IMG/VR virus record: IMGVR_UViG_2531839433_000004
Reading direction: 5' to 3' (one strand)
Length of the DNA stretch: 23,310 nucleotides
From: a virus
Lineage: Duplodnaviria > Heunggongvirae > Uroviricota > Caudoviricetes
A program made the translations under genes and the position numbers. How positions within the stretch are numbered: position 1 is the stretch's first letter; every line of letters begins with the position of its first letter. A model generated the notes under the pieces. That model saw only the letters and a program-made list of their open reading frames with translations. It did no database searches and was not told the origin of the DNA. Shown here in pieces: positions 8,782 through 23,310 of this stretch.

Positions 8782-9711
8782 ATGGCAAACACTGCTGAGA
8801 TATTCAATTTTCCTGTGCCGGATGTGGCACAAAAGGAGCCGCGCGTGGCAGATCTCGATGATGGTTATACGCGCATTGCAAATGAGTTGCTGGAAGCTGT
8901 GATGCTGGCCGGATTAACACAGCACCAGCTTCTGGTCTTCCTGGCTGTCATGCGCAAAACATATGGCTTTAATAAAAAACTGGATTGGGTGAGCAACGAG
9001 CAACTTTCCGAGTTGACCGGGATATTGCCGCACAAGTGTTCTGCTGCAAAAAGTGTTCTGGTAAAGCGTGGGATTTTTATTCAGAGCGGGCGGAATATCG
9101 GCATTAATAATGTGATCAGTGAATGGTCAACATTACCCGAATCAGGTAAGAAAAATAAAGTTTACCTGAAAGAGGTAAATTTACCTGAATCAGGTAAGAA
9201 AAGTTTACCCAAATCAGGTAAAGGCGTTTACCCGAATCAGGTAAACACAAAAGACAAACTAACAAAAGACAATATAAAACCTTTTTCGTCCGAGAATTCT
9301 GGCGAATCCTCTGACCAGCCAGAAAACGATCTTCCTGTGGTGAAACCGGATGCTGCAATTCAGAGCGGCAGCAAGTGGGGGACAGCAGAAGACCTGACCG
9401 CCGCAGAGTGGATGTTTGACATGGTGAAGACCATCGCGCCATCAGCCAGAAAACCGAATTTTGCAGGGTGGGCTAACGATATCCGCCTGATGCGTGAACG
9501 TGACGGACGTAACCACCGCGACATGTGCGTGCTGTTCCGCTGGGCATGCCAGGACAACTTCTGGTCCGGTAACGTGCTAAGTCCGGCCAAACTCCGCGAC
9601 AAGTGGACCCAACTCGAAATCAACCGTAACAAGCAACAGGCTGGCGTGACAGCCGGAAAATCAAAACTCGACCTGACAAACACTGACTGGATTTATGGGG
9701 TGGATTTATGA
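8782..9711 (+). CDS. O: Replication initiator O-like protein with the origin iterons inside its coding sequence
   Basis: MANTAEIFNFPVPDVAQKEPRVADLDDGYTRIANELLEAV...RKTYGFNK...ISEW parallels the lambda O N-terminus. GGAGGA RBS before the ATG at 8782. The ORF overlaps the P start. Confidence 0.8.
   Translation: MANTAEIFNFPVPDVAQKEPRVADLDDGYTRIANELLEAVMLAGLTQHQLLVFLAVMRKTYGFNKKLDWVSNEQLSELTGILPHKCSAAKSVLVKRGIFIQSGRNIGINNVISEWSTLPESGKKNKVYLKEVNLPESGKKSLPKSGKGVYPNQVNTKDKLTKDNIKPFSSENSGESSDQPENDLPVVKPDAAIQSGSKWGTAEDLTAAEWMFDMVKTIAPSARKPNFAGWANDIRLMRERDGRNHRDMCVLFRWACQDNFWSGNVLSPAKLRDKWTQLEINRNKQQAGVTAGKSKLDLTNTDWIYGVDL
9134..9246. repeat. Replication origin iterons: five direct repeats of ~18-20 bp, followed by an A/T-rich segment (9247..9290)
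   Basis: TTACCCGAATCAGGTAAG; TTTACCTGAAAGAGGTAAA; TTACCTGAATCAGGTAAG; TTTACCCAAATCAGGTAAAG; TTTACCCGAATCAGGTAAAC. Each has internal dyad symmetry (TTACC...GGTAA), as in lambda ori. Confidence 0.7.
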
Positions 9712-10396: not shown

Positions 10397-10981
10397 ATGA
10401 ACAAGAAATACACGTTGATCTAAGCGGATCCGCCCTGGACGTACGAGGATAAATGCAATTCTGGTAAGCGTGGCACCGGGCATAAATACTTGGTTATGAC
10501 GGTGCAGGATATCTGCTGGCTGCCAGTAAGGGAGCGGGTTGCAGAAAGCTGCCAGCTGGCGATGTGGTGGTTGCCAACTCAAACGTTCGAGGCGATGAAA
10601 GTCGTCGATGCCTGGGGATTTCGCCTGATCACAATGAAAGGTTTCACTTGGGATAAAACCTACCCGAAGCAAACTGACAAATCGGCGATGGGAATGGGAC
10701 ACCTGATCCGGGCGAACCGTGAAGATTGTCTTTTCGCGGTAAAGGGTAAGCGGGCACCACAGCAGGACGCCTCGATCATCCAGCACTACACCTCGCCGCG
10801 ACATGAGCACTCACGTAAACCAGACTGCGTGCGTGAAATGCTGGTTCGGTTGCTGGGTAATCTTCCACGTATTGAGCTCTTTGCGCGTAAATCCTCCCAC
10901 GGTTTCGACGTATGGGGAAACAAGTGTGATTCGCCAACCGTATCATTAAGCCCGGCCCGAGTTACTGATGTTTATTCTTAA
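10397..10981 (+). pseudogene. MT-A70-family DNA N6-adenine methyltransferase interrupted by an in-frame TAA at codon 9
   Basis: ATG AAC AAG AAA TAC ACG TTG ATC TAA GCG GAT CCG CCC TGG reads MNKKYTLI*ADPPW. The catalytic DPPW motif follows the stop in frame. The downstream frame continues ...AWGF...RANREDCLFAVKGKR...SPRHEHSRKPDCVREMLVRLLGNLPRIELFARKSSHGFDVWGNK. Confidence 0.7.
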
Positions 10982-11192
10982 AAGAATTAACTGAAAAGAG
11001 GAAGGTTTGATGAGTTTTTTTACGTGAATTAACACGTAAGACTGCTGGTTATTAAACCATCACATTAGATATCTAAAAATTGTGATCGGTATCTCCCTAC
11101 TATAAAAAAAAGTAGTTGAATATACGGTCTATACTTGAAATAAATAAAAGTATTCTTATTTTTTAGATTCTGTGTTGTGAAAAGGAATTTTT

Positions 11193-12224
11193 ATGTCCTC
11201 GAATATTTTATCTGGTGAAAAAGTAATCAATAAAATTGCTGAAAAGTTGAGCGATTATAAATATCCTCCGGCTGAAGGTATGAACTCTGAACATGTCAGC
11301 AAATGGATTAAGCAATTTGCAGTGGAGGATAGACGATTTATCTTAGATGAAACGCTTTATCTACTTAATGCAGGTTACCTATCCGAAAGTCAATATCAAC
11401 GAAAAATAAAAGCCATTGCAAGAAGTGAAAAGAACGCGAAATTCTTCAGATATGCAGGTTTTTTAGATATTCAAAAAAAAGGTTCTAGTCAGAAGGAATT
11501 GCTTAAATCTCTTTATGAAACAGTAGGGATCAAATTTAACATCGTTACTGAATCATCAACTCAAGATGAAGTAAATAAATTTGATACATTTGTATATATT
11601 GATGATGTGTCGTTTTCAGGAGAAAAGGCCATCAAATCGATAAGTAATTTTGTTTTAAAATTTAATTTAAGAGATATTAAATTCAATGTATATTTTTTTT
11701 CATCTCATACGTTATCTGACTATAATATAAAAAGACGATTAGAATATATTTTTAAGGATAGAAACATTTTTGTACACGTGAAGAATGGTGGTATGCGTGA
11801 GGTTGAAAACCGAAAAAGTCGTTCTGCTCAATCAGGTGTTTTCTGGCCAAGGAAATATAGTGTAGATACTCCCGAGAAATTCGAGGAGTGTGAGCTTTAC
11901 AAAGGCGTATTCAGAGATGGATATGCCTCTTCTGATAGTTTTAGAAATGAAGCCTCAAGGGATCGTTTCGAATCTATCCTTACTAAAGTCGGCTTTAATA
12001 TCTTGCTGCACAGGAAAACCCCTAGTGAGGTGCTCAAACCTCTAGGTTTTTCTACTTTTGACGGTTTGGGTTTTGGGGGAACAACATTTACTTATCGAAA
12101 TTGCCCGAATAATGTGCCGCTGGCTTTTTGGTGGGGAGATTATGAACCAACAGGTGCTCCCGCATTGGACTGCTGGTATCCACTAATGAAGCGGAATGGG
12201 TATAATGAGTGGTATGAGCTATAG
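11193..12224 (+). CDS. Unrecognised 343-aa protein with a PRTase-like motif, in a low-GC insertion
   Basis: Long ORF in a distinctly A/T-rich block. RBS AAAAGGAA before the ATG. FVYIDDVSFSGEK (aa 133-145) resembles the PRPP-binding loop of type I phosphoribosyltransferases. Rest of the protein not recognised. Confidence 0.6.
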   Translation: MSSNILSGEKVINKIAEKLSDYKYPPAEGMNSEHVSKWIKQFAVEDRRFILDETLYLLNAGYLSESQYQRKIKAIARSEKNAKFFRYAGFLDIQKKGSSQKELLKSLYETVGIKFNIVTESSTQDEVNKFDTFVYIDDVSFSGEKAIKSISNFVLKFNLRDIKFNVYFFSSHTLSDYNIKRRLEYIFKDRNIFVHVKNGGMREVENRKSRSAQSGVFWPRKYSVDTPEKFEECELYKGVFRDGYASSDSFRNEASRDRFESILTKVGFNILLHRKTPSEVLKPLGFSTFDGLGFGGTTFTYRNCPNNVPLAFWWGDYEPTGAPALDCWYPLMKRNGYNEWYEL

Positions 12225-12825
12225 ATTATATCCGCTACAGAACACAGTTTCCTTCAGGAAAACCACCGAAAAATGGGGGGGGCTTTCCAACATGGCTAAA
12301 GGATATCCATTGTTAATCAATGGGTTGCCTATTCAATCAAGTGAAATCCTTTACCAAGCATGCCGATATCCAGACTATCCGGATATACAAAAGGCCATCA
12401 TTACTCAAGGAAACCCCTATGAAGCCAAGCAGACCGCAAGATCGTTTGAATCCAAAACTCGCGCAGGATGGGATAAGAATCGAGTTTCGATTATGAAGTG
12501 GTGTGTATGCGTAAAATTATGCCAGAACTGGGATACGTTCTTTGCGCTGTTAGACAGTACAGGCGACCATTTCATCGTGGAACACTCAGAGAAGGACCAA
12601 TTCTGGGGTGCCAGTAAAGACCCAGAAGGTAACTATTATGGTATGAACGTATTAGGGCGAATTCTCATGGACGTGAGAGGGGTTGCTAGGAAAAAGGGGG
12701 CTGATGGGTTTGCAACAATACCATCGCTATCTTTGGACAAATTTTTTCTCCTAGGCGAAAGAATTAAAGATGTAACATTTGTAGAGCCAACGCCTGGAGC
12801 AGGGCAAAGTTTATCCTTGTTTTAG
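12196..12825 (+). CDS. NADAR-domain protein (YbiA-like N-glycosidase / ADP-ribosyl-base hydrolase family)
   Basis: Recognisable NADAR pattern WGGLSNM, SSEILYQACRY, KTRAGWDKNRVSIMKWCVCVKLCQN, LLDSTGDHFIVEHSEKDQFWGAS, GMNVLGRILMDVR. Overlaps the upstream gene end; start could be the ATG at 12196, 12205 or 12214. Confidence 0.7.
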   Translation: MGIMSGMSYRLYPLQNTVSFRKTTEKWGGLSNMAKGYPLLINGLPIQSSEILYQACRYPDYPDIQKAIITQGNPYEAKQTARSFESKTRAGWDKNRVSIMKWCVCVKLCQNWDTFFALLDSTGDHFIVEHSEKDQFWGASKDPEGNYYGMNVLGRILMDVRGVARKKGADGFATIPSLSLDKFFLLGERIKDVTFVEPTPGAGQSLSLF

Positions 12826-12935
12826 CGTTCCATCTGGGGCATTTTCTTCCATAAATTAACTGGCGTACCTCCCTCGGCGTTTTTTTGTTGCCATAAAAGG
12901 TTTTTGATTTTCTATAATCAACCAGCCATAATCAT

Positions 12936-13541: not shown

Positions 13542-13711
13542 TGGCTACACCGCTTATTCGTGTCATGAACGGACACATCTACAAAGTACCAAATCGTCGT
13601 AAGCGTAAACCTGAGCTGAAGCCATCCGAAATACCAACTCTGCTCGGATATACCGCCAGCCTGGTTGATAAAAAATGGTTGCGACTGGCAGCAAGGAGGA
13701 ATCATGGCTGA
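13541..13711 (+). CDS. ninE: NinE-like small basic protein
   Basis: 56-aa [56 protein letters not shown]. The basic motif and spacing resemble NinE. ATG overlaps the ninB stop. Confidence 0.45.
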
Positions 13712-14297
13712 TTTGAGAAAAGCAGCGCGTGGTCGGGAATGCCAGGTAAGAATCCCTGGCGTATGTAATGGCAATTCTGAAACGTCTGTACTGGCACATA
13801 TCCGGCTGACCCCACAAACAGATTTCACGCTCAATCTCACGACGAGTCATGAGACCTTTCCATTGCTTACCGCCAGCATATGTCCAGCGACGTAGCTGAT
13901 CACATGCGCCTTTGATATCGCCCTGGTTTATTTTGCGAAGAAGCGTCGATGTTCTGAAATTGCCAGCGCCCACGTTGTAAACGAACGAGTAAAGAGCGCC
14001 GCGCGTTGTTTCCGGTATATCAACTTTTATGTACGGGTTAATTTGTCTGGCGACCGTGGCAAGGTCTTTATTCAGGAGGGCTTTGCATTCTGCTTTGGTA
14101 TACGTTTTACCGAGCATGATGTCTTTTCCTGTATGCCCGTGACATACAGTCCATACACCAACAATATCTTTGTATGGTATGTAGCTGACACCTTCCAGAC
14201 CATCGTTACCACTTGGGCCAGTGATTAACACTGATGCTATAGCAATTGCTCCGCCACCAATAGCAGCAGCAACGGCTTTTCGTAATGATGGAGGCAT
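13563..14297 (-). CDS. R: SAR endolysin (phage 21 R / RrrD-like GH24 lysozyme); the ORF has lost its native stop and runs ~80 codons into antisense nin sequence
   Basis: The first 164 aa [44 protein letters not shown]...CLWGQ match R21/RrrD-type SAR lysozymes (recalled). Sequence after Q164 (13806..13808) is unrelated. Start overlaps the holin stop (ATGA). Confidence 0.85.
13704..13808 (+). pseudogene. ybcO-like nin-region gene truncated after ~35 codons at a rearrangement junction
   Basis: [35 protein letters not shown] matches the YbcO/DUF1364-type N-terminus (recalled). Downstream translation is antisense to the lysozyme gene. Confidence 0.45.
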
Positions 14298-14512
14298 TAT
14301 TCACCTCTCGCAGCCTTGCGCTTATCTTCTTTAATCTTGAAATAAAGGTTTGTCAGGTACGTCAGCAGGCCAAATACCAGGCTACCCAGCACACCTATTG
14401 CTGCCCACTGTGAGGGCGTGACTTTATCGAGCAGCTGTAAAAACCAGTAACCGGCACTACCTGCTGAGGTGCCATAGGCGACACCCGTTGTTAACTTATC
14501 CATGGATTTCAT
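14297..14512 (-). CDS. S: Class II pinholin (S21/EssD-like)
   Basis: [71 protein letters not shown] has two TMDs and a basic C-terminus; near-identical in pattern to S21. Dual-start MKSMDK motif present. The ORF extends upstream to 14557. Confidence 0.8.
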
Positions 14513-15099
14513 AACCCCACCTCGCAGACAAAGCGGGTGTAAATTGAGGGAATACAACGTATCGCAAAAAAGCAGAAACGTAACAGACTCGGAGTCAGTG
14601 AATAACTCAGGTATTGAGTTATCAGCTAATATCGAGACTCAGAAAATGGAAAAACCAGCTCGACGGCGGGTTTAAGCTGTGTGACGAAGTAACCACTCTT
14701 AACAGCATAACCAATTTTTTACGTACGTAAACCACTGAATGATATTTATGAGAATGCTACCGAGTGTTCAAAACACCACCACAAATACATAAGAAAACCT
14801 CAACAAATAACCAATAAATAATTTCAGACGTTATTTTTAGTTGATTTAAATTAAACTGCCGAATTATAGAACCTCCATAAATAACAACCATTAATATAAA
14901 TTAGCTAATAGGTTTATTTTTGTTCAAATAAGAGCCATAAATAGGTTTCGATAGAAAAAGTTCAGATAAAAATAGAGATCTACTTCACAAATTAAATGAG
15001 AAACTAAAACTTACATCTTGAAATAATCACATTGATTAGATGAATATTTATCGCGCAGTGACATCATTTTTTAATAATAGTTCAAAAAAAGGGCTCACG

Positions 15100-16182
15100 A
15101 TGAAAAAATTAACAGTGGCAATTTCTGCTGTAGCTGCATCAGTACTGATGGCGATGTCTGCTCAGGCAGCTGAAATTTATAATAAAGACAGTAACAAGCT
15201 GGATCTATATGGGAAAGTTAATGCCAAGCACTACTTCTCCTCTAATGATGCAGATGATGGTGATACTACTTATGCCCGTCTTGGCTTCAAAGGTGAAACC
15301 CAAATCAACGATCAACTGACTGGTTTCGGTCAGTGGGAATATGAATTCAAAGGCAACCGCGCTGAATCTCAAGGCTCCTCCAAAGACAAAACCCGTCTTG
15401 CATTTGCAGGCCTGAAATTCGGGGACTACGGCTCAATCGATTACGGCCGTAACTACGGTGTAGCATATGACATCGGTGCGTGGACTGACGTTCTGCCAGA
15501 ATTCGGTGGCGATACCTGGACCCAAACAGATGTGTTCATGACTGGTCGCACCACTGGTGTTGCAACTTATCGTAACAACGACTTCTTTGGTCTGGTTGAT
15601 GGTCTGAACTTTGCTGCTCAGTATCAGGGTAAAAATGACCGCACTGACGTAACTGAAGCTAATGGTGATGGTTTCGGTTTCTCCACTACTTATGAGTATG
15701 AAGGATTCGGTGTAGGTGCAACCTATGCTAAATCTGACCGCACTAATAATCAGGTTATCTACGGTAACAACAGCCTGAATGCATCTGGTCAAAATGCTGA
15801 AGTATGGGCAGCTGGTCTGAAATATGATGCGAACAACATCTATCTGGCTACCACCTATTCTGAAACCCAGAACATGACTGTTTTTGGTAATAACCATATT
15901 GCCAACAAAGCACAAAACTTCGAAGTAGTTGCACAATATCAGTTCGACTTCGGTCTGCGTCCGTCCGTTGCTTACCTGCAATCTAAAGGAAAAGACTTGG
16001 GTGCGTGGGGTGATCAGGACCTGGTTGAATATATTGATGTAGGTGCAACCTATTACTTCAACAAAAATATGTCCACTTTTGTTGATTACAAAATCAACCT
16101 GATTGATAAGAGCGATTTCACGAAAGCATCTGGCGTTGCTACCGATGATATCGTTGCTGTAGGTATGGTTTACCAGTTCTAA
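15100..16182 (+). CDS. Outer-membrane general porin of the OmpC/OmpF/NmpC(Lc) family, prophage-encoded
   Basis: Signal peptide [30 protein letters not shown]. Beta-barrel porin hallmarks and C-terminal ...VGMVYQF. AAGGG RBS. The ORF track starts 60 nt upstream, but MKKL is the likely start. Confidence 0.85.
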
Positions 16183-16308
16183 TTTGATTACTAAAAGATA
16201 TGTTGCGGGAGGCTTTGCCTCCCCAACATATAAGTGGCTCCCTCAAGCCACTTCCTTTAGGAGCACAACCTTGCTTCTAACTATATAAACCTTCTGTTAT
16301 ATATTACC

Positions 16309-16340
16309 CTTTATTTTTGGGGGCGTTGCAACGCCCCATT
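16309..16340 (+). terminator. Intrinsic terminator downstream of the porin gene
   Basis: GGGGGCGTTGCAACGCCCC hairpin followed by ATTTTTAATAATTTTT. Confidence 0.55.
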
Positions 16341-16370
16341 TTTAATAATTTTTAGTAAACAATTGGCATA

Positions 16371-16754
16371 TTAATTAGAGTTATTAACAACGATATCCAT
16401 CTCTAACCGGATATCTAATGCCATTAACATCCCTTCAATTATGCCCTCAGCCTTCTGTAACCTTTTCCCGATATAACCATCAGAGCAGCAATGCTTACCT
16501 GCCAGTGACATGAATGTCATACCGACTACATAATAATCTACTAATAAATCGTGCAAATCGCTGCTGTTCTTTTTCAGACGGGCCATGCACCCGCAAATAA
16601 TCATCGCGTCATCGTCACAACATTGCGGGCGAGATTTTACTTTTGAAGTAATTAATCCCTTAAAACCGGCGGCAATGGACGACCAGGTCACATCTTCATG
16701 ATTATTAGCCGCCCACGCTCCCCAACGCTCAAGAACCATCTGAATATCACGCAT
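16371..16754 (-). CDS. Q: Late-gene antiterminator Q (phage 82/QuuD type)
   Basis: [62 protein letters not shown]... matches the DLP12 QuuD-type Q as recalled. Cys-rich zinc-binding segment present. Confidence 0.8.
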
Positions 16755-16820
16755 CAACTTACTCCACAAAAATCAGACCAGAACGCCAATTACAAGCAAA
16801 AATCAACAAAACAGTATTAG

Positions 16821-17480
16821 TTGATTGTTATCTCTGACTTCATACTCCTGCTCCTGTCAGGGTTTTGGCGTAATTCTTCAGTATTCGGTAATCGGTCAAA
16901 ACAGAACCGGGGAAACGATATAAGCGCAGATGCCCCCAGCGGTGGCGAAGAAGTTCTGCCATATAAAACTCAAACATCATTCATTCCCCATTTCGGTGAT
17001 GGTCAGTTCCAGCCTCCCACCTTTGGTATTGCACCGCCAGATATTCCGGTAGGCTTCGTGGCTGTTTTCAACAGTGATGAGGCATCGTGGCATCTCGTTG
17101 AAGATCATCGGGGAAAAACCGTCTATGACGTGGCTTCCGGCGACTCGTTATTTATTTCTGAACTCGGACCTCTACCGGAAAATATCACCTGGTTATGCCC
17201 GGAAGGGGAGTTTCAGAAGTGGAACGGCACAGCCTGGGTGAAGGATACGGAAGCAGAAAAACTGTTCCGGATCCGGGAGGCGGAAGAAACAAAAAACAGC
17301 CTGATGCAGGTAGCCAGTGAGCATATTGAGCCGCTTCAGGATGCTGCAGATCTGGAAATCGCAACGGAGGAAGAAACCTCGTTGCTTGAAGCCTGGAAGA
17401 AGTATCGGGTGTTGCTGAATCGTGTTGATACATCAACTGCACCTGATATTGAGTGGCCCGCAATCCCTGTTATGGAATAA
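16821..17480 (+). pseudogene. Tail fibre assembly (Tfa) protein homologue, probably a 5'-altered remnant with no ATG start
   Basis: C-terminal ~150 aa ...[52 protein letters not shown]...[11 protein letters not shown] match the lambdoid Tfa family. The N-terminal 60 aa are unrelated and the frame opens with TTG. Confidence 0.6.
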
Positions 17481-17840: not shown

Positions 17841-19796
17841 GTGGATACAGCAGAACATGATGGCAAGTTTGCTTGGGCTAGTTTTTATGAGGCTTTTGCC
17901 AACGCGTTACTGACTTGGCGAAATCGTAGAGATGAATTAGTCAAAGGTATTCATCTAATTGCCTCGGGTGTGGAAGGAATGTCCCATCTGCAGGACAAAT
18001 CTATTATGGGAGAGATCTTTCCCTTAAAAGACATTTGTCCGTTTACTACTATGGGCTTGTTCAATCGTAACTTGACCGACAGCAATCGCAAAATTATTGC
18101 TGCCAAGCTAGCGAATTTGTTGGGCGTGAACGAACCGATTCCTGACTCCTTTGCCGGAATCCCTCTGTTGAATAACCAAAAATCTTGGTTCTTTGGTTAT
18201 GAAAAGTCACGCGACCCTAATGACATTGAATGCTTGTGGGAAATGTTCTCACAGGCAATGACCTTTGCGGATAACCAGAATACTAACTCTGCAGACTTCA
18301 CTGCCGCATATGACATCGCTTCTACAGTAATGAATGTCGGTTGGAATCTCACCATGGGGTTGTACTGGACCCGTCCTTGGTTCTACCCCACTTTAGATAG
18401 CCAGTCGCAGTATTACATTCAGACAGTGTTAAACATTAAGATCATTAAAAACGGGGCAAAAGGTCGCTGTAGTGGACAAAGTTACCTGAGTCTTATGCGG
18501 GCGCTGAACGAGGTCTTTACCCAACCAAACTATCCGGTTCATTCTTTCCCAGAACTTTCCTTATCAGCGTGGAATACAGATCTTAGCCAGTCTAAAGATG
18601 AGGTGGCAAATAGAACGTGGAAAGCCTCTTTACTGAATAAAATTAAGGCGTTATGCCTGAAAAAAAATGGCCCTTATTTCACTGCTTCGGAGTTGGAAGA
18701 AAACTACTTGGACGTTTTCAAGGTAGAGCATCCTGAGAGCAAAACTGTTACAAGCTCAATCTACTTTTATCTACAGAAACTATGCAATGATGATGAGTTA
18801 AAGTCCCTCGAGTCCGGAAATTATGAATACCTGAATTTTGAGAAAAACGAATCCCAGACGATAACTGAGGAAACTGTCGAAGAGAGTGCGCTGTCGCCAA
18901 AACTCACCCACGTTCCTTATGATATCAGTCATCTGGTGCAGGATGGCTGTTTCTTGGAAGAGGCTAAGATCCAACTCACACTTCAGCGCCTGATCGACAA
19001 GAAAAACCTGATATTACAAGGACCACCCGGAACTGGAAAAACTTGGTTAGCGCGACGTCTGGCGTACTGCTTGATGGGAGAAAAAGCACCTGAGCGTATT
19101 AGCGCGGTGCAATTTCACCCGAACCTCTCTTACGAAGACTTTATTCGCGGCTGGCGTCCAGGTAAAGAAGGGCAATTGACGCTAATTGATGGACCTTTTG
19201 TAAATGCAATCAAAACTGCAGTCAATAATCCTACCTCGAAATATGTGGTGATAATTGAAGAGATTAATCGTGGCAATCCGGCGCAAATCTTCGGTGAAAC
19301 ACTCACGTTGATGGAAGCAGATAAACGCACGCCGACTGAGGCATTATCTCTTTCCTATCCTAAAAATGCTGATGAAAAAATATACATTCCTGAGAATCTA
19401 TATATCATCGGTACGATGAATATTGCAGACCGCTCACTCGCACTACTTGACCTAGCGCTGCGCCGTCGTTTCGCGTTTATCGATCTAAAGCCAGCTTTTA
19501 ATGACGCGTGGAGAAACTGGGTAAATTATAATTACGCAATTGATTTTGACATGTTAGCATTCATCAAATCTCGACTGACGGTATTAAACGATATGCTGGC
19601 AAAAGATGTTACCTTAGGACCACAGTTTTGTATCGGTCACAGCTATGTCACCCCAGCTATCGGCCAAAAAATCAACGATGCCCAGGCTTGGTATGAACAA
19701 GTCGTTGATACAGAGATCTGCCCTTTGCTCGCCGAATATTGGTTCGATGCTCCAAATAAAGTCGATGAAGCCAGAAAAGTGTTATTAGCAAAATGA
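17841..19796 (+). CDS. mcrB: McrB-like AAA+ GTPase with a ~390-aa unrecognised N-terminal domain
   Basis: C-terminal half carries Walker A LILQGPPGTGKTW, VVIIEEINRGNPAQIFGE, and IIGTMNIADRSLALLDLALRRRFAFIDL, as in E. coli McrB. GTG start at 17841 with GGAG 5 nt upstream; the ORF track opens at a TTG at 17814. Confidence 0.85.
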   Translation: MDTAEHDGKFAWASFYEAFANALLTWRNRRDELVKGIHLIASGVEGMSHLQDKSIMGEIFPLKDICPFTTMGLFNRNLTDSNRKIIAAKLANLLGVNEPIPDSFAGIPLLNNQKSWFFGYEKSRDPNDIECLWEMFSQAMTFADNQNTNSADFTAAYDIASTVMNVGWNLTMGLYWTRPWFYPTLDSQSQYYIQTVLNIKIIKNGAKGRCSGQSYLSLMRALNEVFTQPNYPVHSFPELSLSAWNTDLSQSKDEVANRTWKASLLNKIKALCLKKNGPYFTASELEENYLDVFKVEHPESKTVTSSIYFYLQKLCNDDELKSLESGNYEYLNFEKNESQTITEETVEESALSPKLTHVPYDISHLVQDGCFLEEAKIQLTLQRLIDKKNLILQGPPGTGKTWLARRLAYCLMGEKAPERISAVQFHPNLSYEDFIRGWRPGKEGQLTLIDGPFVNAIKTAVNNPTSKYVVIIEEINRGNPAQIFGETLTLMEADKRTPTEALSLSYPKNADEKIYIPENLYIIGTMNIADRSLALLDLALRRRFAFIDLKPAFNDAWRNWVNYNYAIDFDMLAFIKSRLTVLNDMLAKDVTLGPQFCIGHSYVTPAIGQKINDAQAWYEQVVDTEICPLLAEYWFDAPNKVDEARKVLLAK

Positions 19797-20914
19797 CGAC
19801 AATAACCGGGAGTGAGCAACATACAGCATCACGTATTCCCATGCGAAATATCTGGATGCTGATGCTGTACGCTTCAGATCTGTTTCGCCAGTTAGGGCGC
19901 AATCAGATCGCAGTAGAAGATAACCCAGCAGAAATCCCCGACCTGGTGGCGACAATCCTCCTTCATGAGATTACGCTGCGCCGACGTCGCAATTTAAATA
20001 TGGGATACCAAACTTGTCATGCGGCCCTGAACCGGGTGAGAGGGCGCATTGACATACTGTATACTGCCAGTCATCAACTGCTGGAACGGGGACAGGTTGC
20101 CTGCCATTTTCAAGACATAACCCTCAACACCCCCCGAAATCGCTATGTTCGCTGTGCGTTAGAACGTCTGGCCTCAATCATAGTGAAACCGTCTTTGGCG
20201 GCAGATTGCCATTTTATGGCAATATCACTTCGCCGTGAGGGGATAAATGGAGGATATCCTGCCCCCCACGAATTACCCTCAGTGTGGCGTTTTGGACGCC
20301 ATGATGCCGCAGATAAACCGATGGTCGATGCCGCACGATTAGCTTTTGAACTGCTGATGCCGACCGAAGATCAAGGCCAATATCTTTTACCTGCGCCCTC
20401 AAATAACCTTTACTGGATGAGAAGACTATTTGAAAAAGGTATCGCTGGCTTATATCGTGTACACCTTGACAAAACAACTTGGCAGGTCTCTGCAGGGAAA
20501 GAGCTGAAATGGGCGTTGAGCGATCAAAGTGCAGGTAGTGCAGAGATTTTCCCGACAATGAAGTCAGACATTATTCTGGAACACAAGACTGCCCAGCGGC
20601 GTATTATTATCGATACCAAATTTAATTCGATTCTGACAAAGGGTTGGCATCGGGAGCAATCACTACGTAATGGCTATATTTATCAGCTATATACCTACCT
20701 TAGAACACAGGAGAACAAGACGGATCCGCTTTCGCTCAATGCCGCTGGTCTTCTACTTCATCCAGCTGTTGGCTATATGCTTAATGAGTATGTTGTCACT
20801 CAGGGACATAAGATCCATTTTGCTACAGTAGATATGACGGTAGATGCTAAAGCAATTAAAAAACAATTGCTGGCAATAGCCCATGATTGTGCAGGAGTCG
20901 CGGTTGATGACTAA
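19793..20914 (+). CDS. mcrC: McrC-like PD-(D/E)xK nuclease subunit
   Basis: Start overlaps the mcrB-like stop (ATGA, translational coupling). The segment RRIIIDTKFNSIL...YIYQLYTYL is consistent with the McrC nuclease core. Confidence 0.8.
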   Translation: MTTITGSEQHTASRIPMRNIWMLMLYASDLFRQLGRNQIAVEDNPAEIPDLVATILLHEITLRRRRNLNMGYQTCHAALNRVRGRIDILYTASHQLLERGQVACHFQDITLNTPRNRYVRCALERLASIIVKPSLAADCHFMAISLRREGINGGYPAPHELPSVWRFGRHDAADKPMVDAARLAFELLMPTEDQGQYLLPAPSNNLYWMRRLFEKGIAGLYRVHLDKTTWQVSAGKELKWALSDQSAGSAEIFPTMKSDIILEHKTAQRRIIIDTKFNSILTKGWHREQSLRNGYIYQLYTYLRTQENKTDPLSLNAAGLLLHPAVGYMLNEYVVTQGHKIHFATVDMTVDAKAIKKQLLAIAHDCAGVAVDD

Positions 20915-21614
20915 CCATCCTATAGGGCACTGGCTGTAATATAATCAATAGTTTCAATTAAGTAGCTGTTATCCGTGCTTAGTCATCATATGACGCACCA
21001 CGGTCTAATTTTCCTGCTCATACATTGATATATCCTTGTCGTGCCCGGAAAGTCGCAGTCCACTATGAGGTATACCGATTGCCAGCACCAAAAGCTTCTT
21101 TGTGATTATTATATCGGGGAATGCCTATTTTTTTAGTGACAATATCAGATAGCAATTAATAAGCGGTGCCGGTAATGGATGTTATGTTTAATGTATAGAC
21201 ACAGCCATCATAAACTAAACGTCTGTTGTTCGCTCATAACCGACATTTATCTCAGTTATGGAGGATAATTATGTATGCAGATAATGGGGCAGACAGTCGT
21301 GGAGTAAACAAGGTTTTGCACTGCTTGGCGGCATCGTTATCTTATTTTTAATTATGTGCCTCTTAACATAAGTTGGGACAAAACAGAGACACATAAGGTC
21401 TCACAAAGGTCTGCAAGGCCTCACATGTATTGAGATGTTAATAAAATGTAGACTTGTAATTTGGATATAAATGGTAGAGAAAACCTTTCCCCAAAATAAA
21501 AACGAACGTCAATGAAATCAAACGGTTGAATAAAGTTAATTTTGGCTAATAAAAAGACAATAAAATAATTTTTATCATTAAATATCAATGACTTGAATTC
21601 ATGGTTTTTATATA

Positions 21615-21779
21615 CTGCTGCGCCATATGGGTTGGACTGAAGCGGCTGACCTGATTGTTAAAGGTATGGAAGGCGCAATCAATGCCAAGACCGTAACTTA
21701 TGACTTCGAACGTCTGATGGAAGGCGCTAAGCTGCTGAAATGTTCAGAGTTTGGTGAAGCGATCATCGAAAACATGTAA
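21615..21779 (+). pseudogene. icdC: 165-bp 3' fragment of icd (isocitrate dehydrogenase), icdC-like, marking the prophage/host junction
   Basis: Translates to [54 protein letters not shown], the ICD C-terminus. Upstream sequence lacks icd homology. Confidence 0.85.
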
Positions 21780-21802
21780 TCTCTCCATGTGTTAAATATT
21801 GA

Positions 21803-21834
21803 AACGGGCGTATAACACGCCCGTTGTTTTATTT
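21803..21834 (+). terminator. icd intrinsic terminator
   Basis: AACGGGCGT-ataac-ACGCCCGTT followed by GTTTTATTT. Confidence 0.6.
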
Positions 21835-21881
21835 ATGTGGATATTATTAATAGCATATCGAGCATATTTATATGAAGCCCA

Positions 21882-22205
21882 TTACTTGAGCCCATATGGG
21901 CATATTTTTATAATGCAACTATTATGTAAACATTTATTTGTTATTTTGCTTTCTCCTGGAGGACACTCTTGACTGCTTTTGAGTAAACTCCATAAATCCT
22001 TGTTGAATGGTGCGATGTGATAAATAGTAATAGGATATTCTTTATCCTTAAGGATAATACCAGACTTAACCGGTGTAAATATACTGCCAGGAGGGAGAAA
22101 TATAGTAGATTGATACCAGATGATCATTTTCATATTACCCCATATGGCTGAAAAAGATATACCACATGTAGGTTGAATTACCGTGTCAATTACTATCCAC
22201 TTCAT
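21882..22205 (-). CDS. iraM: Anti-adaptor protein IraM (RssB inhibitor)
   Basis: 107-aa [41 protein letters not shown]... matches E. coli IraM/YcgW as recalled. A/T-rich gene. Confidence 0.75.
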
Positions 22206-22645
22206 TTGTTATGTCTTATCCCACGGTATTTAATATGGTTCATTAGGATGTTTATTTCTTGATTTTGCATATGAGTATATTACCCCCCCCCTCAAAAAAA
22301 TAAATTAATTAAAATGATGGCTTATATAAAATAAAATTTAAAGCAAGGAATCTCAATGGATGTTAAACAAAATGAGATTTTGTGAAAGCAATAAATTATT
22401 GACTTCGTTTTAGATTTGTTTAGCTATAATGTTATACATTCAAATGACTGAACATCCTGTAATTAAAACATAGCCTTTATGCTACTTTGTGCCAATTTGC
22501 TAAACATTATGGTTGCCTTTTTATATAACGATAATAATGAATATAAGCATGACATGAGAATAAGGTTTCAATTTTTGAGTTATATAGGAATGATTTAACC
22601 TGTTCCTGGCTAAAATACATATAACCGGATGATGACTAAACCAAA

Positions 22646-22700
22646 ATACATGTGCGTTAAGTATTGAAACGGACGTGTGGCACGGCCGTTGTTTTTATAA
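22646..22700 (+). terminator. Degenerate second copy of the icd 3' end and terminator hairpin
   Basis: CATGTGCGTTAAGTATTGAAACGGACGTGTGGCACGGCCGTTGTTTTTAT aligns with CATGTGTTAAATATTGAAACGGGCGTATAACACGCCCGTTGTTTTAT at 21786..21832. Confidence 0.45.
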
Positions 22701-22905
22701 ATATGTTAACCGTTATAAAATAACGTATCAAAAGTCAAGTGATCACATTTCAAATATCAAGTTGATAGTATTAGTCTGGTGATTATTTATGGGTGACAAT
22801 AAAAAGACAGTATTAATCATCCATAGAGATAGTCTCTGCACTTTTATTTCCATTATGCTAATGCCTTACTGAATTATGAAGCATTTCTTAAGTATCCAAC
22901 TTTAG

Positions 22906-23310
22906 CTAGATTAATGGTTTATTATTTTCTACATCTTCAATATATAAAAGCGTATTATCAATGGCGTAGTAACTGCGTTTGTTATGATTAACATCAGTAA
23001 CCCACCGGAAAACGCCCGCGCCTGCCAGTGTTGAACAGTATTCCCGAAATGTAGATTTTCCGCAAATATGAAGCAATGCGGCCTCTTTTATTTTAGCAGG
23101 GTTCTTGGTCGTACTAACTTTTAACAGGTTCCTGGTTCCTCTTAATAACAAAACCGTATCATCGTGAGTAATAATTCTGATGTTATCCGTAGCCAGATAA
23201 TAAATGTAATGTGCAATACGGTGATGTTTTAATTCTGAATAAAACCAGGAGAAGTTTTGCTCTTTTCTCACTTGCTCAAACATCTTTTGAAAAACAACGA
23301 CCTGATCCAT
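22906..23310 (-). CDS. ycgX: YcgX (DUF1398-family) host protein
   Basis: 134-aa MDQVVVFQKMFEQVRKEQNFSWFYSELKHHRIAHYIYYLATDNIRI... matches E. coli YcgX as recalled. Start codon sits at the window edge. Confidence 0.75.
   Translation of the reverse strand: MDQVVVFQKMFEQVRKEQNFSWFYSELKHHRIAHYIYYLATDNIRIITHDDTVLLLRGTRNLLKVSTTKNPAKIKEAALLHICGKSTFREYCSTLAGAGVFRWVTDVNHNKRSYYAIDNTLLYIEDVENNKPLI

Follow-up and report, generated by a model that had tools for sequence, protein, structure and literature searches.

DS-32 in a decayed lambdoid prophage of Escherichia coli: an anti-phage gene pair joining a phosphoribosyltransferase-like protein to a NADAR partner

DS-32 is a two-gene anti-phage system recovered with DefensePredictor (DeWeirdt et al., bioRxiv 10.1101/2025.01.08.631726; Science 2026, doi 10.1126/science.adv7924, PMC13092281). 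Its source segment (NZ_QOXQ01000027.1 48629..50261; 1,633 nt; clone code NADR in the supplementary tables of that study) was put, native promoter included, on a low-copy plasmid for tests in E. coli MG1655. According to the tabulated plating data (-log10 efficiency of plating, Table S7), the clone lowered plating by 10^3.7 (~5,000-fold) for Bas26, a T5-like phage, and by 10^1.6 (~40-fold) for RB69; plaques of T5, SECphi18 and Bas67 are recorded there as smaller. The preprint (bioRxiv 10.1101/2025.01.08.631726) describes DS-32B as structurally like NADAR-type DarG and DS-32A as unlike DarT, raises the possibility that toxin-antitoxin partners have been swapped, and gives no mechanism. Here we analyze a 23,310-nt stretch of viral DNA (IMG/VR IMGVR_UViG_2531839433_000004), called the window below, with positions counted over its whole length. 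It carries two overlapping genes that are, in our judgment, almost certainly DS-32, in the cargo slot that separates P from ybcN/ninB in a decayed lambdoid prophage, which is inserted at icd of E. coli.

The comparisons behind this identification agree with one another. Gene 1 reaches 312.7 bits over the full length of the NCBIfam equivalog NF053875 (DS32_1_antiphage; cut-off 250), and gene 2 reaches 257.4 bits against its companion NF053876 (DS32_2_antiphage; cut-off 240), both passing. The gene 1 product is identical to the tested protein WP_000097610.1 at 343/343 residues. The gene 2 product matches the tested WP_032260665.1 at 202/203, the one change being E191 here for K191 in the clone, in a non-conserved C-terminal tail. 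Gene order and segment length (1,633 nt, 11193..12825) are also those of the clone, and one RefSeq record names the pair ‘phosphoribosyltransferase-like anti-phage protein’ and ‘NADAR family anti-phage protein’. The published and present copies are the same system in the same species, with the same operon length and near-identical proteins; apart from residue 191 they differ in host, assembly GCF_003333945.1 for the clone versus strain 504239 or a relative here. The original prediction, made from the letters of the window, held that such a pairing had not been described. That claim was wrong because DS-32 had already been published and tested against phages with identical or near-identical proteins, and it has its own NCBIfam models and RefSeq names. 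The accompanying proposal of an anti-phage role is supported by the plating drop tabulated for the near-identical clone. As a discovery the locus therefore adds nothing: DS-32 is published, validated and part of NCBI annotation models, and the interest that it retains lies in its mechanism.

Several other described systems resemble DS-32 in part. DarTG1 also pairs two defence genes, a NADAR hydrolase standing beside an enzyme that makes an N-glycosidic ribosyl-base bond (an activity that is predicted for DS-32), and the NADAR fold, with its catalytic Glu and a basic residue, is common to both. However, the DS-32 writer has a phosphoribosyltransferase (PRTase) fold rather than an ADP-ribosyltransferase (ART) fold, and no DarT is encoded beside the NADAR; its donor would therefore be phosphoribosyl pyrophosphate (PRPP) rather than nicotinamide adenine dinucleotide (NAD+), and its adduct ribose-5-phosphate rather than ADP-ribose. 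DS-32B is moreover of the YbiA (Glu) type, whereas DarT1-linked NADAR proteins are of the BC4488 type with Asp in the last strand, and neither gene order nor sequence relates DarTG1 to DS-32. Type III-A retrons, for example Retron-Eco11, have a homologous PRTase-CE-type effector with a PRPP loop and a PNNxP signature, and the published defence spectra overlap with that of DS-32 at T5-like and T-even phages. The DS-32 locus differs in having no reverse transcriptase open reading frame (ORF), non-coding RNA or winged-helix C-terminal domain (its neighbors are P, an MT-A70 pseudogene and ybcN), and the effector’s partner is a NADAR enzyme instead of a complex of reverse transcriptase and msDNA. 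ShosTA/PsyrTA likewise consists of two genes that act in defence, the toxic component having a PRPP-binding type I PRTase domain. DS-32 gives no ShosT or ShosA match in PADLOC at E <= 1, though; DS-32A has no pyrophosphatase domain, and the antidote in ShosTA is a DprA-like, DNA-binding, recombination-promoting protein, whereas in DS-32 it would be an N-glycosidase. The anticodon nuclease PrrC sits inside the EcoprrI type I restriction-modification (R-M) locus, the same kind of arrangement as that of DS-32 relatives found between hsdM and hsdR in 39/80 species. The window copy, in contrast, is free-standing, and the embedded relatives have the NADAR fused to HsdS itself.

Domains and conserved residues of the two proteins

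PRTase-CE (Pfam PF24390) is the only domain detected in DS-32A, at 134.9 bits against a cut-off of 27 and covering model positions 1-253/253. When the PDB was searched by sequence profile alone with the DS-32A family, only PyrR appeared, at a non-significant E of ~1, and because this search fell short a fold comparison was required. By that comparison the structure model of DS-32A has the type I PRTase fold, with a parallel beta-sheet core that resembles purine and pyrimidine PRTases. The model places the loop GFLDIQKKGSSQ directly after the strand at residues 89-92; by analogy with type I PRTases this is a candidate pyrophosphate-binding loop. The predicted PRPP-binding loop, FVYIDDVSFSGEK / TFVYIDDVSFSGEK, follows further on, between a strand (132-140) and a helix (144-157). 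This segment aligns weakly to the PRPP loop of PyrR (E ~1), and in its YIDDVSFSG part D137, D138 and F141 are invariant and G143 is at least 90% conserved across 33 homologs with identities down to 28%.

The C-terminal part of DS-32A carries a family signature, RNCPNNVPLAFWWG, with the PNNxP motif described for retron PRTase effectors (PMC12746101). The stretch RNCPNNVP is invariant, and the signature extends to an invariant W328-Y329-P330-L331 in the same homologs. A match to the PADLOC PRTase_III-A model (E 7.5e-11) points to homology with retron type III PRTases, with which the HHblits result of the DefensePredictor authors agrees. By Pfam and PADLOC the DS-32A clade belongs with the defence-effector type I PRTases and not with the NadV type. 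The original prediction had read the 343-aa protein as PRTase-like, with a motif resembling a PRPP loop, and as something other than a DarT. All of this is borne out by the PF24390 match, the type I PRTase (not ART) fold, the invariant D137/D138 and the lack of any DarT match in Pfam or PADLOC.

DS-32B matches Pfam NADAR at 82.4 bits (cut-off 35.1, E 5.7e-23), so the downstream gene had been correctly recognized as a NADAR. Its closest match by sequence among structures is E. coli YbiA (2b3w, E 2e-11), an alignment in which SE..Q and VEHxE.D.(Y/F)WG are kept; the NADAR structure 8bau gives E 0.074. The residue roles worked out for other NADARs (PMC11543638, PMC11125620) would fall here on E44, on R51, the basic residue seven positions past E44 (Lys in other NADARs), and on E123, the last-strand Glu that defines the YbiA subfamily. 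Because these three are invariant in 83/83 partner NADARs, the protein is predicted to be conserved as an enzyme in this family. Behind the NADAR core lies a conserved tail (F177, L179, I184). Against TIGR02464, the model for riboflavin-intermediate N-glycosidases, DS-32B scores 70.5 bits, below the cut-off of 73.7, and its gene lies in a prophage cargo slot and not at the ybiA locus; it is thus not simply the riboflavin-pathway YbiA orthologue. In E. coli K-12, ybiA itself belongs to a LexA-controlled cluster with ybiB, whose product is PRTase-like, binds DNA and has a different PRT fold (PMC11125620). This second, independent association of a NADAR with a PRTase-like protein may deserve comparison with DS-32.

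Gene coupling and architecture across the family

A single-sequence locus scan of species-representative genomes returned no relatives, and a profile-based rerun was needed. The profile-driven scan, with one genome per species, found 169 DS-32A relatives, and we retrieved the best 80 of these (26-76% identity), which include members from Proteobacteria, Acidobacteria, Chloroflexi, Planctomycetota, Spirochaetia, Myxococcota and Gemmatimonadota. A hidden Markov model of the NADAR partner matches all 80 loci. The NADAR gene lies immediately downstream on the same strand in 79 of them, at 26-49% identity, and within 2 kb in the remaining one, and in many the start and stop codons overlap by 1-4 nt. 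The apparent exception, in Enterobacter mori (L005, 6001..9671), has a pair of PRTase-CE paralogs, with identities to DS-32A of 76% and 52%, that share one NADAR; the second paralog directly precedes it. An MT-A70 fragment lies between these paralogs, and the locus looks like the recombination product of two cassettes. In the window itself the pair is also translationally linked, in line with the coupling that the original prediction had suggested. The 29-nt overlap of the open frames shrinks to 11 nt with the start used in RefSeq and in the published protein, Met-7 of the open frame.

Searched exhaustively with the profile, 1.84 billion representative proteins gave 1,213 family members at E <= 1e-3, some of them fusions. 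In one (P0234) a single chain carries PRTase-CE and, behind it, NADAR, and in another (P0147) PRTase-CE is followed by an HRDC nucleic-acid-binding domain. Other long members, P0231, P0218 and P0166 being among the fusion proteins, place an LRR, Sel1 or FGE-sulfatase sensor-type domain before a C-terminal PRTase-CE. All of the LRR-, HRDC- and FGE-fused variants examined (3/3; loci L087-L090) have a gene for a ~200-aa NADAR directly downstream. A variable sensor-type domain joined to a constant PRTase-CE and a constant NADAR is the layout that one would expect if an immune effector had a dedicated partner.

The NADAR partner takes two main forms. It is a standalone protein of ~200 aa, as in DS-32, in 31/80 loci, which have no recurrent neighbors, and a protein of ~700-1,400 aa in 45/80. 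When all 49 extended NADAR proteins were compared with Pfam, 36 contained HsdS target-recognition domains (Methylase_S) and four contained DUF1156 DNA-methylase domains, so that the NADAR is fused to HsdS or to a DUF1156 methylase in 40/80 loci. HsdM is encoded directly upstream in 39/80, and HsdR directly downstream in 35 of those 39. Half of the sampled family, which is chromosomal, is accordingly organized as hsdM - PRTase-CE - NADAR::hsdS - hsdR, or as a helicase/DUF1156-methylase analogue of that operon; GmrSD-type nucleases recur further upstream in 13 loci. The window copy, with its 203-aa NADAR and no adjacent hsd genes, is of the standalone form and not the R-M-embedded variant.

In the fusions to HsdS the NADAR forms the N-terminus, and this was seen in 36 species (L012, which is the same as L003, at 7022..9304; L013, L017, L020, L022-L024 and ~30 more). 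The NADAR-DUF1156 proteins occupy 7022..11047 of L018, 6996..10556 of L021, 6987..10583 of L035 and 2916..6488 of L042. L018 gives an N6_N4 DNA-methylase match below the Pfam cut-off, and L035 has an SNF2/NOV_C helicase upstream. These loci resemble the Hma helicase-methylase-ATPase defence system. Literature searches, whose coverage was incomplete and from which we claim no priority, returned nothing linking NADAR with HsdS or type I R-M, and found the PRTase-NADAR pair discussed in the DefensePredictor papers only; searches on PRTase-CE and on DNA phosphoribosylation in defence returned nothing relevant.

The cassette in its prophage

The cassette is rare, being present in 19/5,426 complete E. 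coli genomes, and the total is 62/5,426 (~1%) when a second allele is included; neither occurs on plasmids, and the E. coli copies are always carried as prophage cargo. In the independent carrier CT29 the pair is again found between P and ybcN, and the 78%-identity allele of 43 further genomes has the same location. That second allele, present in E. coli STN0717-20 (L086 4233..5866) and in 42 E. coli genomes besides, has ~78% DNA identity over the 3’ half, encodes a 339-aa PRTase (WP_021548563.1) with the NADAR WP_000122138.1, and is followed by ~420 bp of extra sequence with a 67-aa ORF. Searches of a phage collection, with DNA and by tblastn, found no sequenced phage isolate with the cassette or a DS-32A homolog.

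A comparison of the alleles also marks out the cassette (Table 1). The last ~50 nt of the leader are kept in the second allele, including the ribosome-binding site, which here reads AGGAAT immediately before the start codon of gene 1. Behind the NADAR stop codon the window has a terminator-like hairpin with a T-run; the second allele has a clearer hairpin with T6 in the same position, and then the same ATAAATTA. Both alleles rejoin the prophage backbone at one point. This right-hand junction is sharp: from 12902 (query position 1921-1922) the sequence is 90-94% identical to thousands of lambdoid prophages and phages, with homology in 2,893 E. coli genomes. Because the alleles share the end of the leader with its ribosome-binding site, the hairpin and T-run after the NADAR gene and the point at which the backbone resumes, the pair behaves as a self-contained cargo cassette. 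A promoter scan found sigma-70-like sites to be no more numerous than in shuffled sequence, and on that account no promoter can be claimed from the sequence.

In agreement with the moron insertion proposed originally from an A/T-rich block at 10982..~12900, this is cargo (a moron cassette) that occupies the P-ninB slot of a lambdoid prophage. The drop in GC is real (0.275-0.335 over 11000-12000, against 0.50-0.56 in the upstream replication genes and ~0.50 downstream), but the strongly AT-rich part comprises only the leader and gene 1 (0.356), while gene 2 (0.435) is close to the average of the window (0.448). Two further AT-rich stretches (GC 0.27-0.35) lie at 14600..15200, upstream of an ompC/nmpC-like porin gene, and at 21200..23000, which is the iraM-ycgX host flank.

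Table 1. Features of the window and of the DS-32 cassette.
Feature	Position	Strand	Remarks
Integrase region, split by an IS3-family transposase	1..2456; transposase 495..1708	- (transposase)	
YdaT toxin-domain protein	8156..8695		cII position, between cro-like gene and O
MT-A70 family DNA methyltransferase pseudogene	10397..10981		internal stop; adjoins the cassette upstream
AT-rich 5’ leader, 211 nt	10982..11192	+	GC 0.275
Weak sigma-70-like site	11135..11162	+	scores 9/12; chance level in shuffled sequence
Gene 1, DS-32A, presumed effector	11193..12224	+	ORF of 343 aa; type I PRTase core at ~residues 89-205
Candidate pyrophosphate-binding loop GFLDIQKKGSSQ, past the first core strand	11457..11492	+	Q94, G97, S99, Q100 invariant in 33 homologs to 28% identity
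Predicted PRPP-binding loop FVYIDDVSFSGEK / TFVYIDDVSFSGEK	~11586..11627	+	strand, D137-D138, S-G, helix N-terminus; coordinates checked
Family signature RNCPNNVPLAFWWG, with PNNxP motif common to retron type III PRTase effectors	12096..12137	+	R302, N303, P305, N306, P309, W313, W314, G315 invariant
Gene 2, open frame	12196..12825 (open from 12196)	+	209 aa as open frame
DS-32B, predicted YbiA-type NADAR N-glycosidase	12214..12825	+	203 aa from Met-7; NF053876, Pfam NADAR and 2b3w matches
Predicted catalytic residues of DS-32B	E44 12343..12345; R51 12364..12366; E123 12580..12582	+	invariant in 83/83 partner NADARs
Terminator-like hairpin and T-run	12827..12852	+	directly past the NADAR stop codon; consensus scan
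Right-hand end of cassette	12853..12901	.	common lambdoid backbone upstream of ybcN/ninB from ~12902

E. coli strain 504239 (NZ_CP025859.1) matches the window at 100% identity. The prophage is a decayed lambdoid element inserted at icd, in the order integrase (split by IS3), xis, exo-bet-gam, a cI-like repressor, O and P, followed by the MT-A70 pseudogene, the gene pair, ybcN (ninB-like), ninE, rearranged DLP12-like lysis and Q genes, an McrBC-like pair and a duplicated icd end. With its integrase split by the transposase, the element is probably unable to excise. The MT-A70 gene was considered as a third component of the module, because an MT-A70 fragment also precedes the pair in E. mori. 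It is a pseudogene here and in strain CT29, and it is missing from the 78%-identity E. coli allele and from 79 other loci; as that allele manages without any MT-A70 remnant, we do not count it as part of the module.

Compared with strain CT29, the region after ninE (13704..17480) is inverted and partly deleted: a nuclease-domain gene and rrrD are truncated, essD, quuD and ylcG lie on the minus strand, and rusA is missing, which is a further sign of prophage decay. The McrBC-like pair (17841..20914), a 651-aa AAA ATPase followed by McrC, lies at the element's far end, a little ahead of the duplicated icd fragment (21612..21779). The ATPase matches PADLOC restriction-enzyme models (E 3.8e-17), and the pair would be a second defence cargo of the same element.

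Candidate mechanism and competing explanations

In the reaction of type I PRTases, a nitrogen nucleophile receives ribose-5-phosphate from PRPP. NADARs hydrolyze bonds between ribose and the nitrogen of a base, as in ADP-ribosyl-guanine DNA and in the 5-phosphoribosylamino-pyrimidine intermediates of the riboflavin pathway (PMC11543638, PMC11125620). The chemistry of the two predicted enzymes fits together because a PRTase makes the type of bond that NADARs cleave. We give about even credence to an arrangement of toxin and enzymatic antidote, in which the PRTase would make a toxic N-linked phosphoribosyl adduct from PRPP and the NADAR would remove it. DS-32A would be the effector, binding PRPP with its type I core and moving ribose-5-phosphate onto a base nitrogen, either in nucleic acid or in a nucleotide or other small molecule, to give a harmful N-glycosidic adduct. 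DS-32B, as the obligate partner, would hydrolyze that bond and keep the cell safe, and infection by T5-like or T-even phages would tip the balance toward the PRTase and block phage replication. An effector role for DS-32A is suggested by its type I PRTase fold, its invariant PRPP-loop residues, its homology to retron type III PRTase effectors and, in other family members, the C-terminal position of the domain behind sensor-type domains. Retron type III PRTase effectors, once activated, lower PRPP and cause abortive infection (PMC12746101). T5-like and T-even phages are sensitive to DS-32 and to Retron-Eco11 alike, which may reflect a related trigger, although we regard this as a lead only.

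Several points weigh against this reading. Obligate synteny is the only support for toxicity of gene 1 that gene 2 neutralizes. The published DS-32 work does not report on toxicity of DS-32A alone or on a need for the active sites. ShosT bound PRPP but none of the purines tested, and the Retron-Eco11 effector alone is non-toxic (PMC12746101). DS-32A has a pI of 9.0 but the median of its homologs is 6.5, so that a DNA-binding charge is not conserved on the PRTase; taken as a proxy for binding to DNA, the charge analysis was uninformative to negative. Moreover, a PRPP-burning futile cycle, or a guard that works by binding, would agree with the same data. The identity of the system, the folds, the active-site conservation, the strict gene coupling and the defence phenotype come from the present analysis or from published work; the use of PRPP, the nature of the acceptor, the match of NADAR substrate to PRTase product and the trigger are inferred. 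A writer/eraser or toxin-antitoxin mechanism is made plausible by the comparative data, not demonstrated.

A more specific version, in which DS-32A would put PRPP-derived ribose-5-phosphate on DNA (or RNA) bases with the NADAR as dedicated eraser, seems to us unlikely at present. The fusions of NADAR to DNA-recognition subunits and the HRDC fusion favor a nucleic-acid target; the absence of conserved basic character in the PRTase and the failure of ShosT to bind any tested purine disfavor it.

Both proteins might instead be effectors. The PRTase would load ribose-5-phosphate onto a catalytic amount of base and the NADAR would strip it off again, for a net conversion of PRPP and water to ribose-5-phosphate and pyrophosphate that would starve phage nucleotide synthesis. 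Activating the PRTase of Retron-Eco11 cut PRPP by ~50%, the sole significant metabolite change (PMC12746101), ShosT couples its PRTase to a second hydrolytic activity that pulls the reaction forward, and strict co-occurrence with conserved catalysis suits a two-step pathway as well as it suits an antidote. Yet such a cycle gives no reason for the NADAR to be fused to HsdS or a DNA methylase (40/80 loci) or for PRTase-CE to be fused to HRDC; left unregulated it would be constantly toxic and would need a further switch, and the retron and ShosT PRTases function without a NADAR. We therefore regard it as a tentative and rather improbable explanation. It is also conceivable, though doubtful, that the NADAR or NADAR-HsdS protein inhibits the PRTase mainly by binding, in the manner of PrrC, so that a phage interfering with the partner or the R-M complex would free the toxin, and that NADAR catalysis serves another purpose such as clearing ADP-ribose marks made by phages. 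The embedding as hsdM - PRTase - NADAR::hsdS - hsdR in 39 loci speaks for this, DarG reportedly inhibits DarT both catalytically and by binding to it directly, and the conserved NADAR tail could be an interface. Binding alone, however, hardly explains catalytic residues that are invariant in 83 sequences, and the standalone cassette defends a heterologous host without an R-M operon of its own.

The remaining explanations place the pair outside host defence, and the phenotype, the distribution and the sub-cut-off TIGR02464 score make both very unlikely. That phages encode NADARs which neutralize DarTG1 (PMC11825919) and PRTases for reconstituting NAD+, and that the cassette is carried by a prophage, would suit a NADAR acting as an orphan antitoxin against DarT-type DNA ADP-ribosylation by the host, as in T4-like phages, beside a PRTase that aids nucleotide or NAD salvage. 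We consider such a counter-defence or self-protective role highly improbable: the cloned pair lowers plating of several phages in MG1655, searches of the phage collection found no isolate with a DS-32A homolog, half of the family is chromosomal and in R-M operons, and the PRTase is not of the NadV type. An ordinary metabolic pair, with a YbiA-like N-glycosidase for riboflavin intermediates beside a nucleotide-salvage PRTase, is scarcely credible. It could appeal to the resemblance of DS-32B to E. coli YbiA, to a score that nearly reaches the TIGR02464 cut-off and to the likeness of the DS-32A core to purine and pyrimidine PRTases. But DS-32B passes the DS-32 equivalog while missing that cut-off, the pair is found in ~1% of E. 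coli genomes and there always as prophage cargo, its relatives sit in R-M systems or are fused to sensor domains, and a defence phenotype is published.

If the nucleic-acid version of the toxin-antidote mechanism were true, DS-32 would represent an undescribed nucleic-acid modification, a PRPP-dependent counterpart of ADP-ribosylation by DarT. In half of the family the eraser would then be part of a type I R-M specificity subunit or of a DUF1156 methylase, and removal of the adduct would be tied to the recognition of self DNA. More broadly, the defence-associated PRTases (retron type III, ShosT/PsyrT, Ophion OpnC and DS-32A) form a growing class, within which DS-32 alone has for partner an enzyme whose bond specificity is known. 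Because NADARs cleave ribosyl-N-base bonds, DS-32 offers the most tractable route to the targets of these PRTases, and its obligate NADAR partner, the invariant active site of that partner and its frequent fusion to the DNA-recognition subunits of R-M systems together narrow the hypotheses.

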